Positions 32,249-56,135 of a stretch of DNA of 64,000 nt are shown here, piece after piece; position 1 is the stretch's first letter, and each line of letters starts with the position of its first letter. The stretch is from positions 161,987 to 225,986 of the forward strand of contig JALGXW010000001.1 in assembly GCA_029821875.1 (NCBI GenBank), read 5' to 3'. Made by a program: the position numbers and the translations under genes. This stretch comes from Candidatus Hebobacterum abditum. Its GTDB lineage: Bacteria > Armatimonadota > Hebobacteria > Hebobacterales > Hebobacteraceae. A model generated the notes under the pieces. The model had not been told where the DNA came from and made no database searches. It was given only the letters and a program-made list of their open reading frames with translations.

Positions 32249-33211
32249 CTACTCATCGCCTTCTGACAGCCAAGGGGGAGACGTGTCCTCGGGTGTCAGG
32301 CTCTCCTCGGGCTCGAACTTCCTCGGTTTCAGCCGACGCACGAGCGAGGTAACGTCGTCGGCCTTGCACGCATCCTCGATACCATCCGCGTCGGCGTGGC
32401 GTGATAGGATGACGAGCGCTTCACCGTGCCAGAGCACCTCGAACAAGAGCAGGCAGTCATTGAGCTGAGCATCGAGGCGGACGACGGGCGAGACGAGCTT
32501 CGCCCAGTTCTTCACTTGGCCGGAACGCCCGCGCGGAGCGATGAACCCGGTCGCACCGGCCCCCGCGCCCTGGGCGAACGCGTCCTCAAGCCGGTCATAC
32601 GGGCAACACAGGTATCCCCATGGCAGAAGCTGTGGGCCATCGATTCTGTAGTCTCTTGCCTGGAACACCGCTATCTTTCGGCATTCGAACTCCCTTTGGA
32701 AGTGCTCCATGGCAGCGGCGGTGCCCTCCGGCGTAAATACGTTGACCTCGTCTGGGTGTTGCTCAGCTACCCACGAGGGTATGAAGCAGACTTCGTAGTC
32801 ATCAGGGTCGTAGAGCTGTTTGAGAACGCGAGCCCACATGCGGGCGAGGGCCCGCTGCTCCAGCGGCGTTGGCTCCCAGTCATCCGTCTCCGGCCCGGCT
32901 ATAGCCGCCATCCCAATGCCCGTGTAGGGCGGGAGATCTAGTGGGGGCCCACATTCGATGGGAGCCTCGGGTAGCCCGAAGTGCAGACCGCGGTTCAGGA
33001 CGCACTCAGCGCCGCTGTCCTCCAGCCACTCACAACCCCAGTCCAACTGAACAGATGATACGCCTTGCTCGGTGTCGATACGCTTGGACACAGGTCGGAA
33101 GACCGTGTCCGCACCGTACCACACGCCCGCGATATCTCGCCGCCAGTCCGGCGCGAACCCGGGGATCTTCCGTGGGTCCAAGGTGAAGTGTTTCCCGCTG
33201 TCTTCCCCCAT
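32249..33211 (-). CDS. hypothetical protein (320 aa, acidic C-terminus)
   Basis: Long ORF with coding-like composition; no recognisable motif. Confidence 0.5.
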   Translation of the reverse strand: MGEDSGKHFTLDPRKIPGFAPDWRRDIAGVWYGADTVFRPVSKRIDTEQGVSSVQLDWGCEWLEDSGAECVLNRGLHFGLPEAPIECGPPLDLPPYTGIGMAAIAGPETDDWEPTPLEQRALARMWARVLKQLYDPDDYEVCFIPSWVAEQHPDEVNVFTPEGTAAAMEHFQREFECRKIAVFQARDYRIDGPQLLPWGYLCCPYDRLEDAFAQGAGAGATGFIAPRGRSGQVKNWAKLVSPVVRLDAQLNDCLLLFEVLWHGEALVILSRHADADGIEDACKADDVTSLVRRLKPRKFEPEESLTPEDTSPPWLSEGDE

Positions 33212-33361
33212 GGAGCCCCCTCTATAGGCCAGACATGAACTCCCATACAGAGTCGGCCGCGCCGGGTAGGCCTTCGTGGCCGACTCGGGGGGACAATTCG
33301 CCGCCGCGCTGCCGGAGGCCTGCCGGTTCCGCTGGAGCAGCTCAGTCGAGTCGAAATGGTG

Positions 33362-33601
33362 TCACTTCTTGCGTCCGGCCACGAGCTTGTTGTAGAGCTT
33401 GTCGCCGAGGCACTCTCTCGCCATCTCGCAGTGGTCGATGCAGCCCTGGAGACGCTCCCGCGAAACGACGGTGCCGCAGTCGGCGCACTTGACCTCGATC
33501 TCGTCGGTCCAGATCTCCACCTCGGAATGGCAGACCGGGCAGGGGATGAACTCCAGCGTCGGCTGCTTGAACTGCTTCGCCCCTGGGCACTCGCTCCACA
33601 T
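33362..33601 (-). CDS. small Cys-rich protein (zinc-ribbon CPVC...CADCG plus CIDHC...C), 79 aa
   Basis: Start placed at MWSECPGAKQ because it is preceded by a GGAGAG RBS at 7-nt spacing; the longer ORF version would run through the regulatory palindrome at 33681-33694. Confidence 0.5.
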   Translation of the reverse strand: MWSECPGAKQFKQPTLEFIPCPVCHSEVEIWTDEIEVKCADCGTVVSRERLQGCIDHCEMARECLGDKLYNKLVAGRKK

Positions 33602-33680
33602 TGCTCTGCTCTCCACATAGATCACGGGGTGAGATGTCCGTGTCCACATGGATGATAGCCGGGAGGGGGCGTGGAACTCC

Positions 33681-33694
33681 TTGACCTGAGTCAA
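33681..33694. promoter_or_regulatory. Palindromic FNR/Dnr-type box TTGACCTGAGTCAA (TTGAC-N4-GTCAA), site 1
   Basis: Perfect inverted repeat in the divergent region between the small Cys-rich gene (-) and the crp/fnr-family gene (+), 21 nt upstream of the latter's ATG. Confidence 0.5.
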
Positions 33695-33714
33695 CTGCGG
33701 GAGGAGGAGCTTAC

Positions 33715-34398
33715 ATGGGAGCAGTCACGGCATCTGACCTGGCAGGATGGCAGCTGTTCTCCTATCTGCCGGCGGGCGATACGGCTCGCCTGGCTCGCGT
33801 CGCCACCCAGCACCGGTTTGGCAAGGGACAGACGATCTTCTCCGAAGGCGATCAGGCAGATGCGCTCTGGGTCCTCCTCAAGGGGCAAGTGAAGATCTTC
33901 AAGCTGTCGCCCGACGGGAGAGAGCAGGTCATGCGCATCGTGCGTGGGGGAGAGTCCTTTGGCGAGGCCGCCGCGCTCTCGCAGGGCGACTACCCCGCCC
34001 ACTGTGAGGCGATTGCGCGCTCGGTCGCAGTACGATTTCCGGCCAACGACTTCCTGGCCCTACTCAAAGGCAGCCCCCAACTCGCGGTCAATATGATCGT
34101 GGCGCTCAGCCAGCTTCTGCGGGGCTTCGCCTCATTGGTGGATGCCCTCGCGCTCCGCGAGGTGTCGGCGCGGCTCGCCAAGTATCTCCTCGACGCCTCT
34201 GTTCGCGCGAAGAGCGACGCTGTCGTCCTCGAGGTCCGCAAGAGCCTCCTGGCCGCTCGTCTTGGCACGGTGAGCGAGACGCTCTCCCGTACGCTGCGCC
34301 GTCTCCGGGAGCGCCGCATCGTGAGAGTTGAGGGCCAGCGCATCGACATCCTCGATCGCCCTGCCCTCCAGCAGATCGCGGCTGGGATGAGGATCTGA
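33715..34398 (+). CDS. Crp/Fnr-family transcriptional regulator
   Basis: 227 aa; cNMP-binding-like beta-roll (GQTIFSEGDQADALWVLLKGQVKIF...GESFGE) and a C-terminal HTH with FNR-type recognition helix VSETLSRTLRRL (E--SR). Only one Cys, so not an Fe-S FNR sensor. GGGAGGAGGAG RBS. Confidence 0.85.
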   Translation: MGAVTASDLAGWQLFSYLPAGDTARLARVATQHRFGKGQTIFSEGDQADALWVLLKGQVKIFKLSPDGREQVMRIVRGGESFGEAAALSQGDYPAHCEAIARSVAVRFPANDFLALLKGSPQLAVNMIVALSQLLRGFASLVDALALREVSARLAKYLLDASVRAKSDAVVLEVRKSLLAARLGTVSETLSRTLRRLRERRIVRVEGQRIDILDRPALQQIAAGMRI

Positions 34399-34404
34399 CA
34401 GCTC

Positions 34405-34418
34405 TTGACCTGGGTCAA
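34405..34418. promoter_or_regulatory. Palindromic FNR/Dnr-type box TTGACCTGGGTCAA (TTGAC-N4-GTCAA), site 2
   Basis: Same half-sites as site 1, 7 nt after the crp/fnr stop and centred 70 nt upstream of the ferredoxin-like gene's ATG. A TATCCT -10-like hexamer at 34441-34446 would put the box at about -41.5, the class II activation position. Confidence 0.55.
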
Positions 34419-34480
34419 GGCGCTTCGAGCGGGCCCTGCGGTATCCTGCTGATGACAGTGCAATCTGCAGGAGGAAAGAG

Positions 34481-35251
34481 ATGGCTAGGGTCCGCAACAT
34501 AATCCACATCGACGAGGAGAAGTGCAACGGCTGTGGGCAGTGTGCCACGGCCTGCGCCGAGGGCGCGATCGAGTTGGTTGACGGGAAGGCGCGCCTCGTC
34601 AGCGAGGTCTATTGCGACGGTCTGGGCGCATGCATCGGCGAGTGCCCGACGGGGGCCCTCTGGATCGAGCAAAGGGAGGCCCCGGACTACGACGTCCAGG
34701 CCACGCGGGAGCACCTCCAGAGCATCGGGCGCGATCCAAACGCCGCCCATGACCCCGGCGCGGAGAACGAACACGCGCCGGCCGAGGCCGGTCAGAACCT
34801 GGCCTGTGGCTGCCCCGGCACCGCCGCACGGGCATTCACACCGGCCGGGCAGGAGGCTCCCACGGGCCAGCCGTCCGCGCTGGGACAATGGCCGGTGCAG
34901 CTCACACTGGTGCCGCCGGATGCGCCCTACTTCCAGGGCGCCGACCTGCTGGTGACGGCGGACTGCGTCCCCTACGCCTACGCCGACTACCACGCCGATC
35001 TGCTCGCCGGAAAGGCGGTCGTGGTGGGCTGCCCGAAGCTCGACGATGCTGACTTCTACGCCAACAAGCTGGCAGCGATTCTCACGGCCTCGGACATCCG
35101 CTCGATCACGGTGGCGATTATGGAGGTTCCCTGCTGCGGCGGACTTCTGAGGATCGTCGAGCGGGCGCTCGAGCAGTCCGGCAAAGATATCCCCGTCGAG
35201 GTCGCTACGATCGGTGTGCGCGGGGAGAAGAGGGTGCCGGCCGCGGCATGA
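34481..35251 (+). CDS. ferredoxin-domain protein: N-terminal 2x[4Fe-4S] ferredoxin fused to a C-terminal Cys-rich domain
   Basis: CNGCGQCATAC...C and CDGLGACIGECP cluster motifs; C-terminal CGCPG, CVPYAYADYH, GCPKLDD and VPCCGG motifs. AGGAGGAAAGAG RBS. Confidence 0.7.
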   Translation: MARVRNIIHIDEEKCNGCGQCATACAEGAIELVDGKARLVSEVYCDGLGACIGECPTGALWIEQREAPDYDVQATREHLQSIGRDPNAAHDPGAENEHAPAEAGQNLACGCPGTAARAFTPAGQEAPTGQPSALGQWPVQLTLVPPDAPYFQGADLLVTADCVPYAYADYHADLLAGKAVVVGCPKLDDADFYANKLAAILTASDIRSITVAIMEVPCCGGLLRIVERALEQSGKDIPVEVATIGVRGEKRVPAAA

Positions 35252-35319
35252 CATCTCCTTGAGTTGTCGGCCTGGCACAGCAATCGTCGCGCACGTCGTA
35301 CGAGCTCGGCCGCAGGGCG

Positions 35320-37557
35320 ATGCTGCGGGAGCGGCAAACTATCGGCACCATGGGTCTGAGACGAGCTGACCTGAAGATAACGGGCATGCACTGCGCGGCC
35401 TGCGCGTCTCGCGTCGAGAGTGCGCTGCGCGAGACCGAGGGGGTCTCCGAGGCGAATGTGAACTTCGCCACGGAGAGTGCCGGCCTCCTCTATGACGACG
35501 AGCGTCTCGGCCTCGAGGAAATTGCGGCCGCGGTCGAGGCGGCGGGCTATGGCGTCGTCATGCCGGGCGCCGAGGATGACGAGCGCGCAGCGAGAGAGCG
35601 AGAGCTTCGCACTCTCCAACGGAAGCTGTGGTTCTCGCTCGCCGCCGTTGCCGTGATCATGCTGAGCATTCACGTCGTTTCTCACGTCGTGGCGGTGCCC
35701 GCCGAGGCGCTGCTCGTCGTCGCGACACCGGTTCAGTTCTGGGCCGGGGCCCAGTTCTACCGCGGAGCCTGGACGGCTCTGCGCGGCCGCTTCGCAGACA
35801 TGAACACACTCATCGCCGTGGGGACCTCGGCCGCCTACTTCTACAGCCTGGTGGTCACCCTCAGGCCGGACGTCATAGTCAGTGTAGGTGCGGAGATCCA
35901 CCTCTATTACGACACCTCGGCAATGATCATCACGCTGATCCTGCTGGGCCGGACGCTGGAGGCCAGGGCGAGAGGACGGGCCTCCGAGGCCATCCGGCGG
36001 CTCATGGGGCTCCAGGCGAAGACGGCCTGCGTGCTGCGAGATGGTGAAGAAGTGGAGGTCGCCATCGAAGATGTCGTCATCAGGGATGTCGTCGTCCTGA
36101 GACCCGGCGAGCGCGTGCCTGTGGACGGCGAGGTACTGGAAGGGGAGTCGGCTCTGGACGAGAGCATGGTCACGGGAGAGAGCATGCCCGTCGAGAAGGG
36201 TCCGGGAGACCTGGTGGTGGGCGGCACCGTGAACCTGAGCGGCGCCTTCCGCTTCCGCGCCTCACGGGTTGGAGCGGACACGGTCCTCGCGCAGATCATT
36301 CGGCTCGTCCAGGAGGCCCAGGCCACGAAGGCTCCCATCCAAAGGCTCGCGGATAGGGTCGCAGGCATCTTTGTCCCCATCGTCATCGCCATCGCCGTCA
36401 TCACGTTCGTCATCTGGCTCTTCGTCGGGCCCAATCCGACCTACGCGGTGGTTGCCGCAGTTGCCGTTCTCATCATCGCCTGTCCGTGTGCCCTCGGCCT
36501 CGCTACGCCGACCTCCCTTCTCGTCGGTACCGGGAGAGGGGCGGAGCTCGGCATACTCATACGCAGCGCGGAGGCGCTCGAGGTGGCCGGCGCTGCGGAC
36601 ACCGTGCTCTTCGACAAGACGGGCACTCTGACTCGCGGCACGCCTGAGGTGACCGACATAGTGGCCGCGCCTGGACACACTCAAGAGTCGGTCCTCCGCC
36701 TCGCGGCCTCAGCTGAGCGCTACTCCGAGCATCCCCTGGGCCAGGCCATCGTGAGGGCTGCACGAAACAGGAAGGTCGATATCGCTGAGGCCGCCGACTT
36801 CAAGGCTATGTCCGGCCTGGGAGTGAGCGCCGGCATCGAAGGGACCACCGTGCTGGTGGGCTCCGGCCGGCTGCTGGCCGAGCAAGGCGTGGCCGTCGAA
36901 ACAATGCAGGGACAAGCCGATGTGCTGGCCGGGGAGGGGAAGACGGCCGCGCTTGTGTCCGTGGATGGCAAGACCATCGGCGTGATCGGCCTGGCAGACG
37001 TTGCGAAGGAGGAGGCCAGTGATGCAGTCCGTTTGCTGAAGGAGATGGGCCTGCGGGTCGCGATGGTCACCGGCGACAATGCGCGGACGGCCGAGGCCAT
37101 CGCCCGCGAGGTGGGGGTCGACGACGTGCGCGCCGAGGTCTTGCCAGATCAGAAGGCCGAGGCCGTGAAGGCCCTTCAGGCGGAGGGGCGGCGGGTGGCG
37201 ATGGTGGGAGATGGCATCAACGATGCGCCGGCCCTCGCCCAGGCCGACGTCGGCATCGCCATCGGGCGCGGCACCGACATCGCGATGGAGTCGGCGGACA
37301 TCACCCTGGTGCGAGATGACCTCCGCCTCGTGCCCGAAGCGATCCGGCTGAGCGGGGCGACGCTCCGCAACATCAAGCAGAACCTCTTCTTCGCCTTCTT
37401 CTACAACAGCTTGGGGATTCCGATTGCGGCGGGTGTGCTCTACCCCGTCATTCATACACTTCTCAACCCCGCCATCGCGGCGGGTGCCATGGCCTTCTCG
37501 TCGGTCTCCGTGGTGACGAACGCGCTGAGGCTGCGGACGTATGAGCCTGTCGGCTAG
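35320..37557 (+). CDS. copA: copper-translocating P1B-type ATPase
   Basis: 745 aa; HMA domain [25 protein letters not shown] (CPC motif), DKTGTLT phosphorylation site, GDGINDAP hinge. Confidence 0.85.
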
Positions 37558-55409: not shown

Positions 55410-56135
55410 GTGGGTCCCGTCACGGAACGGCGCATCTGGGACAGCGGCGTGCTGTCCTGGCGCGACTTCATGCGGGAGCCCGGCGCCGCGGGTCTGCCTG
55501 CCCGAATCACAGGGAAGGCGGAGAGCGCCATTGGCGCCTCGCTGCGCCACCTCGAGGCCGGGAACCACAGCTACTTCGCCTCTGCCCTCGCGTCGAGGGA
55601 GCATTGGCGGGCCTACCCGGAGTTCTCCCATCGAGTCGCCTACGTGGACATCGAGACAACCGGAATGGGGGAACACGACTCGGTGACGATGGTGGGGGTG
55701 TACGATGCCCGCGGTGTCCGCATCTACACGAAAGGCGAAGACCTCCAGGACTTCGCCGACGACATCCGGCAGTACGGACTCCTCGTCACGTTCTTCGGGT
55801 CGTGCTTCGACCTGCCGTTTCTCCGCCGGCGCTTCCTCGGCCTGCGCCTCGACCAACTGCACATTGACCTCTGTCATGTGCTGCGTCGCCTCGGCCTGAA
55901 GGGTGGATTGAAGAACATCGAGCGGCAGCTGAACATCGCTCGCAGCCCCGAGACTGAGGGCCTCGGCGGGTGGGACGCGGTCAGGCTGTGGCGGGAATGG
56001 GAGCGCGGCAGTCAGGAAGCTCTGGATCTGCTCAAGGCCTACAACCGGGAGGACATCGTCAACCTCGAGAGGCTGATGCACTACGCCTACGAGCACATGT
56101 GCGAGAAGACGGGCATCCCGGCTCAGGCTGTGTAG
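55410..56135 (+). CDS. RNase-H-like / DEDD 3'-5' exonuclease-fold domain protein (YprB/PF13482-like)
   Basis: VAYVDIETTGMG (exo motif I), FFGSCFDLPFL, YNREDIVNLERL (motif III-like). About 75-aa N-terminal extension of unknown function. Confidence 0.55.
   Translation: MGPVTERRIWDSGVLSWRDFMREPGAAGLPARITGKAESAIGASLRHLEAGNHSYFASALASREHWRAYPEFSHRVAYVDIETTGMGEHDSVTMVGVYDARGVRIYTKGEDLQDFADDIRQYGLLVTFFGSCFDLPFLRRRFLGLRLDQLHIDLCHVLRRLGLKGGLKNIERQLNIARSPETEGLGGWDAVRLWREWERGSQEALDLLKAYNREDIVNLERLMHYAYEHMCEKTGIPAQAV

Follow-up and report, generated by a model that had tools for sequence, protein, structure and literature searches.

A predicted HcpR-type activator site upstream of a frdX-type ferredoxin gene in Candidatus Hebobacterum abditum

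Here we analyzed a stretch of 64,000 nucleotides from Candidatus Hebobacterum abditum (hereafter the window), focusing on the palindrome TTGACCTGGGTCAA, which we call box 2 and which lies between a gene encoding a Crp/Fnr-family regulator and a gene encoding a ferredoxin-like protein. A sequence-only reading of this DNA had proposed that the adjacent regulator acts at the palindrome and that the position of this site suits class II-type activation of the gene for the ferredoxin-like protein. The results presented below support the core of that proposal and allow us to be more specific: box 2 is, with a probability of about 0.8, an HcpR-type activator site for frdX. Two findings carry this view: firstly, the spacing between the box and a -10-like hexamer is fixed in seven relatives; and secondly, 24 distant loci carry the same box upstream of either the orthologous gene or hcp. 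The trio of regulator, site and target is a further example of a system that has already been described elsewhere by comparative genomics. With this example the HcpR-frdX regulon reaches a phylum that has been little studied; it also provides a promoter pair that can be tested, and gives the regulator, which the earlier reading had left open, a name (HcpR-like) and a likely signal (nitrosative stress).

Box 2 occupies positions 34405-34418 and is centred at 34411.5. The stop codon of the regulator gene (TGA, 34396-34398) is followed by six nucleotides (CAGCTC), and the box begins at the seventh base past the stop, where it had first been placed. The regulator gene is flanked on its other side by a second palindrome, TTGACCTGAGTCAA (box 1), centred at 33687.5. 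The two boxes had been said to share their half-sites, and the 5-nt half-sites are indeed identical, the 14-mers differing at one central base (G versus A). Boxes 1 and 2 are the only perfect matches to TTGAC-N4-GTCAA in the window, where 0.01 would be expected on the basis of 100 dinucleotide-preserving shuffles, none of which contained at least two such sites. When the window was scanned with a position weight matrix (PWM) made from 30 sites of other loci, the two boxes scored 23.3 and 23.7 bits, compared with 14.2 bits for the runner-up, which is intragenic at 55864, and 18.1 bits for the top maximum in 20 shuffles. This runner-up (55864-55877, TTGACCTCTGTCAT, one mismatch) was considered as a third box and rejected; it lies inside a gene of the RNase_H_2 family (55410-56135), its score is within the range of the shuffles, and it is probably a chance match. 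In the case of box 2, the rarity of the site, its PWM score and its conservation across phyla exclude a chance origin.

The consensus of the HcpR box was given by Rodionov et al. as atTTGACCnnGGTCAAat in 2004 (PMC545781) and as wyTTGACnnnnGTCAArw in 2005 (PMC1274295), based on regions upstream of hcp and frdX paralogues in Desulfuromonas, Desulfotalea, Geobacter and two cyanobacteria. The core regulon of the HcpR proteins recognizing the latter motif consists of hcp and the ferredoxin-like gene frdX (PMC545781, PMC1274295), and the exact core TTGACCTGGGTCAA is tabulated upstream of D. psychrophila hcp3/hcp2 (PMC545781, Table 10). Both boxes of the window carry perfect TTGAC/GTCAA half-sites and are 14-bp palindromes fitting wyTTGACnnnnGTCAArw, the operator type of what we refer to as the HcpR1 branch; box 2 also fits the extended TTGACCnnGGTCAA core. 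Three further features by which this branch can be recognized are present as well, namely a gene of the core regulon downstream of the site (frdX in this case), a nearby Crp/Fnr regulator consisting of a cNMP-like sensor domain and a Crp-type helix-turn-helix domain, and a recognition helix in which Arg180 of CRP has given way to Ser or Pro and Glu181 and Arg185 are kept.

The regulator encoded upstream of box 2 matches PF00027 (cNMP_binding, E = 4e-25) and PF13545 (HTH_Crp_2, E = 3e-14), and it scored under every cut-off of the NCBIfam equivalogs. Its recognition helix, TVSETLSRTL, has a Ser at the position of Arg180 of CRP (CSRETVGRIL) and retains Glu181 and Arg185; the helices of regulators encoded next to frdX or hcp in other loci read TIPETLSRIL or TVSETLSRTF. 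Exactly this change from Arg to Ser or Pro is reported to go along with the use of TTGAC half-sites instead of TGTGA (PMC1274295). Over its full length the regulator shares 39-45% identity (157-194 bits) with the frdX- or hcp-adjacent regulators of eight loci, compared with 31% (93 bits) for DNR of Pseudomonas aeruginosa, 27% for FNR and 20% for CRP of Escherichia coli; orthology was judged by such pairwise identities. DNR is also its best match among solved structures (3dkw, E = 5e-25, 31% identity), and the HcpR of Porphyromonas gingivalis is not among the best 60 of its 95 matches of this kind. As had been read from the sequence, the protein contains just one Cys (C97), and a Cys cluster at the N-terminus is absent. 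Its N-terminus is Cys-free and shorter than that of E. coli FNR, and thus lacks the cluster that, together with a central Cys, holds the [4Fe-4S] centre of the FNR oxygen sensors. Nor does it resemble CRP in its key residues: the cyclic AMP-contacting Arg82 and Ser83 are replaced by Tyr and Pro, the DNA-contacting Arg180 by Ser, and the site has the form TTGAC-N4-GTCAA, not TGTGA-N6-TCACA.

A genome scan with an alignment of the ferredoxin-like protein yielded 80 distant loci from many phyla, whose proteins share 44-54% identity with the target. With E. coli Hcp as tblastn probe, about 19 of these loci proved to have an hcp gene within 4 kb and in the same orientation. As frdX was originally defined by its position next to hcp, the gene in the window fits frdX. 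In 18 of the 80 loci the ferredoxin-like gene is preceded, at a distance of 63-150 nt, by the sequence TTGAC-N4-GTCAA with at most one mismatch, and in six more this sequence precedes hcp where hcp heads a cluster and is followed by a zinc-ribbon/HD gene and frdX. This brings the total to 24 of 80, compared with a chance expectation of less than one locus in 80, a rough estimate rather than a computed value. Three of the six hcp-headed clusters have a Crp/Fnr gene upstream of hcp on the opposite strand (L035, L066 and L028, the last a partial match). Furthermore, a TAnnnT hexamer is found 29.5 nt from the box centre at 12 of the 24 sites, which implies a centre at -41.5.

Canonical class II promoters have the site of the Crp/Fnr dimer centred at -41.5, where it replaces the -35 element, and a -10 element at -12 to -7. 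As expected of an activator-dependent promoter with no functional -35 and a weak -10 element, a scan of 33300-35400 gave no sigma-70-like -35/-10 pair, and the hexamer TATCCT downstream of the box matches TATAAT at four of six positions. The sequence-only reading had recognized this hexamer and placed the box centre at about -41.5. The hexamer exists, although its true position is 34442-34447 and not 34441-34446, and when it is set at -12 to -7 the centre falls at -42.5; the earlier value was therefore right to within one base.

The geometry of box 2 could be compared in ten loci encoding six close homologues of the target (63-90% identity), for which about 4-5 kb of flanking sequence was available. 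Nine of them contain the regulator gene. Six (L082 and L084-L088) have the same arrangement as the window, with the zinc-ribbon gene on the minus strand and the regulator gene and frdX on the plus strand; in L090 and L091, frdX follows the regulator gene at a distance of three genes, and a search of these loci revealed no zinc-ribbon gene; and L089 is without both the regulator and the zinc-ribbon gene. Box 2 is kept at the same distance in L082-L088, L090 and L091, and in seven relatives it is followed, at exactly the spacing of the window, by 21 non-conserved bases, GG, and then TATCCT, TAACCT or TACCCT. In this TAnCCT hexamer the A at position 2 and the T at position 6 are invariant, and the sequence of the spacer drifts. 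Because the spacing between box and hexamer is fixed while the spacer diverges, these data support class II-type activation, and the conserved spacing is a phylogenetic footprint of a putative promoter having the regulator site at the -35 position. In addition, L083 (4500-5000) has retained the box (TTGACCTGCGTCAA) and the TATCCT hexamer intact despite the deletion of the zinc-ribbon gene and of almost the whole of hcpR, of which the last ~19 codons alone are recognizable, and the box and hexamer persist in L090 and L091 even though three genes separate frdX from hcpR. Box 2 is thus a stand-alone promoter element of frdX, and not a feature of the 3' end of hcpR.

The latter point bears on the possibility that the palindrome is merely the terminator hairpin of the regulator gene, or an inverted repeat that arose by chance. 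Its self-complementarity and its start seven nucleotides past the stop codon would agree with a terminator. However, an intrinsic terminator consists of a stable GC-rich hairpin and a U-tract, and the RNA fold of 34390-34440 is no stabler than that of shuffled sequences (z = 0.37) and has no U-run; a scan of 33300-35400 for terminator-like sites gave nothing; and in L083 and L090 the box is present upstream of frdX where no regulator gene precedes it. We consider the probability of this explanation negligible.

It is also conceivable that the box is an operator at which frdX is repressed, either by the adjacent regulator or by a different Crp/Fnr paralogue whose gene is located elsewhere, for example an oxygen sensor of the FNR type. 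On the one hand, TTGAC-N4-GTCAA closely resembles TTGAT-N4-ATCAA, the consensus of FNR and DNR, which makes cross-recognition by a paralogue conceivable, and HcpR2 of D. desulfuricans has been modelled as a repressor (PMC5701242). On the other hand, no -35/-10 pair that would function without an activator can be detected, and the site is located upstream of the conserved -10-like hexamer, not over it, at a fixed distance like that of class II promoters. Moreover, the gene of the cognate regulator adjoins the site, regulator and site vary together across phyla, and the local regulator is itself without the Cys cluster of FNR. Repression is therefore very unlikely, and activation of frdX by the adjacent HcpR-like regulator is the reading that we favour.

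Not all related loci carry the TTGAC-type box. Chloroflexi loci have variant boxes (ATGAT-N4-ATCAT) ~90 nt upstream of zinc-ribbon-frdX pairs. In L036, L060, L064 (at about -90 of the zinc-ribbon gene) and L089 (upstream of frdX), the TTGAC box is replaced by the variant palindromes ATGATtcaaATCAT, ATGATccagATCAT, GTGATttaaGTCAT and ATGATgtaaGTCAT. In L060 and L064 the variant box closely follows a more distant Crp/Fnr gene. The occurrence of variant boxes beside more distant regulators suggests that motif and regulator drift together.

A similar arrangement is found at box 1. Read on the minus strand, this box is followed by 21 bases, two further bases and the hexamer TATCAT (33657 to 33652). 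Box 1 is kept in L082, L084, L085 and L087, with GATCAA as the second half-site in the last three, and the hexamers TATCAT, TATCTT, CATCAT or AATCAT are present in these four loci at the same 21+2 nt spacing; the distance from box 1 to the start codon of the zinc-ribbon gene, on the other hand, varies from ~55 to ~200 nt among relatives. Judging from this conserved spacing, box 1 is probably a class II-type site of the divergent zinc-ribbon gene, znr. On the plus strand, a strong Shine-Dalgarno sequence (GGGAGGAGGAG) of hcpR lies 5 nt past box 1, the end of the box is separated from the hcpR ATG by 20 nt, and the distance from its centre to this ATG (27.5-28.5 nt) is conserved in relatives. 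We also considered whether box 1 could be a class II activator site of hcpR itself, and rejected this: the implied transcription start (~33730) would fall inside the coding region, and the strong Shine-Dalgarno sequence directly follows the box. Any hcpR promoter must therefore be located at or upstream of box 1, and a regulator bound over or just past the hcpR start would suggest negative autoregulation. By analogy with FNR at its own promoter, autorepression of hcpR through box 1 thus appears to fit better than activation of its own gene.

The product of znr belongs to no curated family. Searches against Pfam and NCBIfam gave sub-threshold zinc-ribbon matches only, and the 17 close homologues returned by a word-based search are all unnamed or have generic names. 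Of the 80 distant loci, 16 have a zinc-ribbon gene next to frdX and in the same orientation. The five long forms that were scanned, all from loci containing hcp (L006, L022, L035, L041 and L066), are proteins of ~250 aa in which the zinc-ribbon part constitutes the N-terminus and which all have a C-terminal HD phosphohydrolase domain. The zinc-ribbon gene may correspond to the gene drawn as "?" next to frdX2 in Desulfuromonas in 2004 (PMC545781). A small, unannotated protein that travels with frdX and hcp across phyla is possibly of greater interest than the site itself.

What signal the regulator responds to can be approached through the characterized HcpR proteins. In Clostridioides difficile, HcpR activates frdX and hcp about 200-fold under nitric oxide (NO), and knockdown of frdX renders the cells sensitive to NO (PMC12915319). 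The HcpR of P. gingivalis contains haem, and its Met68 is displaced by NO (PMC12750200). Because the system in the window matches the published HcpR-frdX regulon, NO or nitrosative stress is the likely signal, and by analogy we rate the chance that NO is sensed by the window regulator as somewhat better than even. A CooA-like haem ligand pair, His96-Cys97, was considered and rejected, as it is not conserved even among close relatives.

Several observations weigh against the identification of box 2 as an HcpR-type, NO-responsive activator site. Using E. coli Hcp as probe, no hcp was found in the window. The -10-like hexamer is located 30.5 nt from the box centre, 1 bp farther than the 29.5 nt of the canonical E. 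coli class II geometry and of most of the distant loci. An alignment of the regulators revealed no conserved His, Met or Cys to which the role of haem ligand could be assigned. The His of the motif "EQILH", present in all eight distant regulators linked to frdX or hcp, is replaced by Arg throughout the clade of the window; the window regulator reads ...REQVMRIV... at this position (residue ~74). The characterized HcpR proteins belong to other branches with other motifs, and the TTGAC-type branch rests on comparative genomics. For the organism studied here, the frdX transcription start, the binding of the regulator and the activation of frdX are predictions from sequence.

The replacement of the flap His by Arg and the lack of an assigned ligand mean that the signal of this clade could differ from that of other HcpR proteins. 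It could thus be argued that the adjacent regulator does activate frdX at box 2, but in response to another diatomic gas, the redox state or a metal. The regulon, comprising frdX, the zinc-ribbon protein and perhaps copA, would then serve a stress response different from the classical Hcp-based detoxification of NO. Apart from the His-to-Arg replacement, two observations would agree with this: no hcp was found in the window or in the ~4-5 kb flanks of the ten close-relative loci, and copA or an HMA-domain gene is located near frdX throughout the clade, copA directly following frdX in the window. However, DNA motif, recognition helix and target gene all correspond to the HcpR regulon; where it has been tested, frdX proved to be induced by NO and to have a protective role (PMC12915319); and the proximity of copA may be inherited synteny only. 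We therefore regard a signal other than NO as rather unlikely, and keep to the reading of box 2 as an HcpR-type activator site with NO as the favoured signal.

The sequence-only reading had described the target as a di-cluster ferredoxin domain fused to a Cys-rich C-terminal domain. This description agrees well with our domain analysis, which identified a Fer4 domain followed by PF27217 (AF_0155), a name taken from newer Pfam releases, and with the presence of five invariant Cys residues outside the ferredoxin domain (C111, C162, C184, C218 and C219). No solved structural relative of the C-terminal domain was found. FrdX has no known function, yet C. difficile requires it to tolerate NO, and in this respect the protein may be of more interest than the site upstream of its gene. 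The coordinates of the features discussed here are listed in Table 1.

Table 1. Positions of the boxes, promoter elements and genes of the predicted HcpR-frdX region in the window
Feature	Position	Strand	Description
znr	33362..33601	-	79-aa Cys-rich zinc-ribbon-like protein; no curated family; divergent from hcpR
-10-like hexamer TATCAT	33652..33657	-	First base 30.5 nt from box 1 centre; putative znr promoter
HcpR box 1 (predicted), TTGACCTGAGTCAA	33681..33694	.	Centre 86.5 nt upstream of the divergent znr ATG
hcpR-type Crp/Fnr regulator	33715..34398	+	227 aa; recognition helix TVSETLSRTL; single Cys (C97)
HcpR box 2 (predicted), TTGACCTGGGTCAA	34405..34418	.	Perfect palindrome; centre 69.5 nt upstream of the frdX ATG
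-10-like hexamer TATCCT	34442..34447	+	First base 30.5 nt from box 2 centre; predicted transcription start ~34453-34455
Shine-Dalgarno GGAGGA of frdX	34470..34475	+	Conserved as GAGGAGG in relatives
frdX-type gene	34481..35251	+	256 aa; N-terminal 2x[4Fe-4S] Fer4 domain and C-terminal PF27217 (AF_0155)
copA-type Cu P-type ATPase	35320 or 35350..37557	+	HMA and E1-E2 ATPase domains; starts 69-99 nt past frdX

About 3.7 kb of DNA that separates frdX from copA in the closest relative, L082 (88-90% nucleotide identity), is missing from the window (window 35252-35350 versus L082 5772-9441). The missing segment comprises a gene for an SLH-domain protein on the opposite strand and the region upstream of copA. 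In the window no terminator-like site was found between frdX and copA, and it is possible that copA is now co-transcribed with frdX and hence under HcpR control by read-through, its membership of the unit being uncertain. A more far-reaching scenario, to which we assign only a small chance, is that the HcpR-type regulator of this clade has been uncoupled from hcp, leaving a minimal regulon of FrdX and the 79-aa zinc-ribbon protein, joined here by the copper exporter CopA after the 3.7-kb deletion. If true, this would suggest a role of FrdX and the zinc-ribbon protein that does not depend on Hcp, for instance in the protection or repair of Fe-S or metal centres, and that the sensor of the clade, with its Arg in place of the flap His, may answer a signal other than NO.

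The rest of the window, as far as it was sampled, has a housekeeping character, encoding glycosyltransferases, YebC, an RNase E/G and a radical SAM protein, and the closest named homologues are from Armatimonadota. An open reading frame of 320 aa on the minus strand (32249-33211) has a coding-like GC content at third codon positions, matched no Pfam or NCBIfam family and has no homologue in any of the loci fetched. It shows no nucleotide similarity to L082, and its position is occupied in relatives by an AXE1-type esterase gene (319 aa) or an unrelated 189-aa gene.

Based on these results we propose the following model. A dimer of the regulator would bind box 2, an operator of the HcpR1 branch located where a -35 element would be, and, from there, ~30 nt upstream of the weak -10 element TATCCT, would switch on frdX; transcription from this promoter may read through into copA. 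Box 1 would do the same job on the opposite strand for the small zinc-ribbon gene, and, being located between any hcpR promoter and the ribosome-binding site of hcpR, it would probably also limit the transcription of hcpR.

How does this proposed system compare with known ones? At class II promoters of E. coli FNR and CRP the dimer site is centred ~41.5 bp upstream of the start, in place of the -35 element, as proposed for box 2, whereas their half-sites are TTGAT or TGTGA and those of the window TTGAC. FNR of E. coli also binds its own promoter for autorepression, through a site over that promoter to which box 1 would be analogous. As set out above, the ligand- and DNA-contacting residues of CRP and the Cys cluster of FNR are absent from the window regulator. 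DNR of P. aeruginosa, a haem-based NO sensor, recognizes an FNR-like box and acts by class II activation, as proposed here; however, it controls genes of denitrification (nir, nor and nos), none of which is present in the window, and the window regulator is nearer to the frdX- and hcp-adjacent regulators (39-45% identity) than to DNR. The HcpR proteins of P. gingivalis (a haem/NO sensor), C. difficile and Desulfovibrio belong to the Crp/Fnr family and activate hcp and/or frdX when cells are under nitrosative stress, again as proposed here, and in C. difficile HcpR targets frdX directly (PMC12915319). The boxes used by these proteins are different (GTAAC-N4-GTTAC-like or TGTGA-N6-TCACA), and Met68, the haem ligand of the P. 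gingivalis protein, could not be mapped onto the window regulator.

The closest counterpart is the HcpR1-branch regulon of Desulfuromonas, Geobacter, Desulfotalea and two cyanobacteria. The system described here differs from it in having a host related to Armatimonadota, for which a literature search found no published description together with HcpR, in the lack of a nearby hcp, in a stand-alone zinc-ribbon gene as a second, divergent target, in a -10 spacing that is 1 bp longer, and in the Arg that replaces the flap His of the regulator. It shares with that regulon the core motif, the frdX type of target, the adjacent regulator gene and a recognition helix with Ser or Pro followed by the conserved Glu and Arg, and its distance from site to start codon (-69.5) is within the range of -63 to -110 found in the HcpR1-branch regulon and in other loci.
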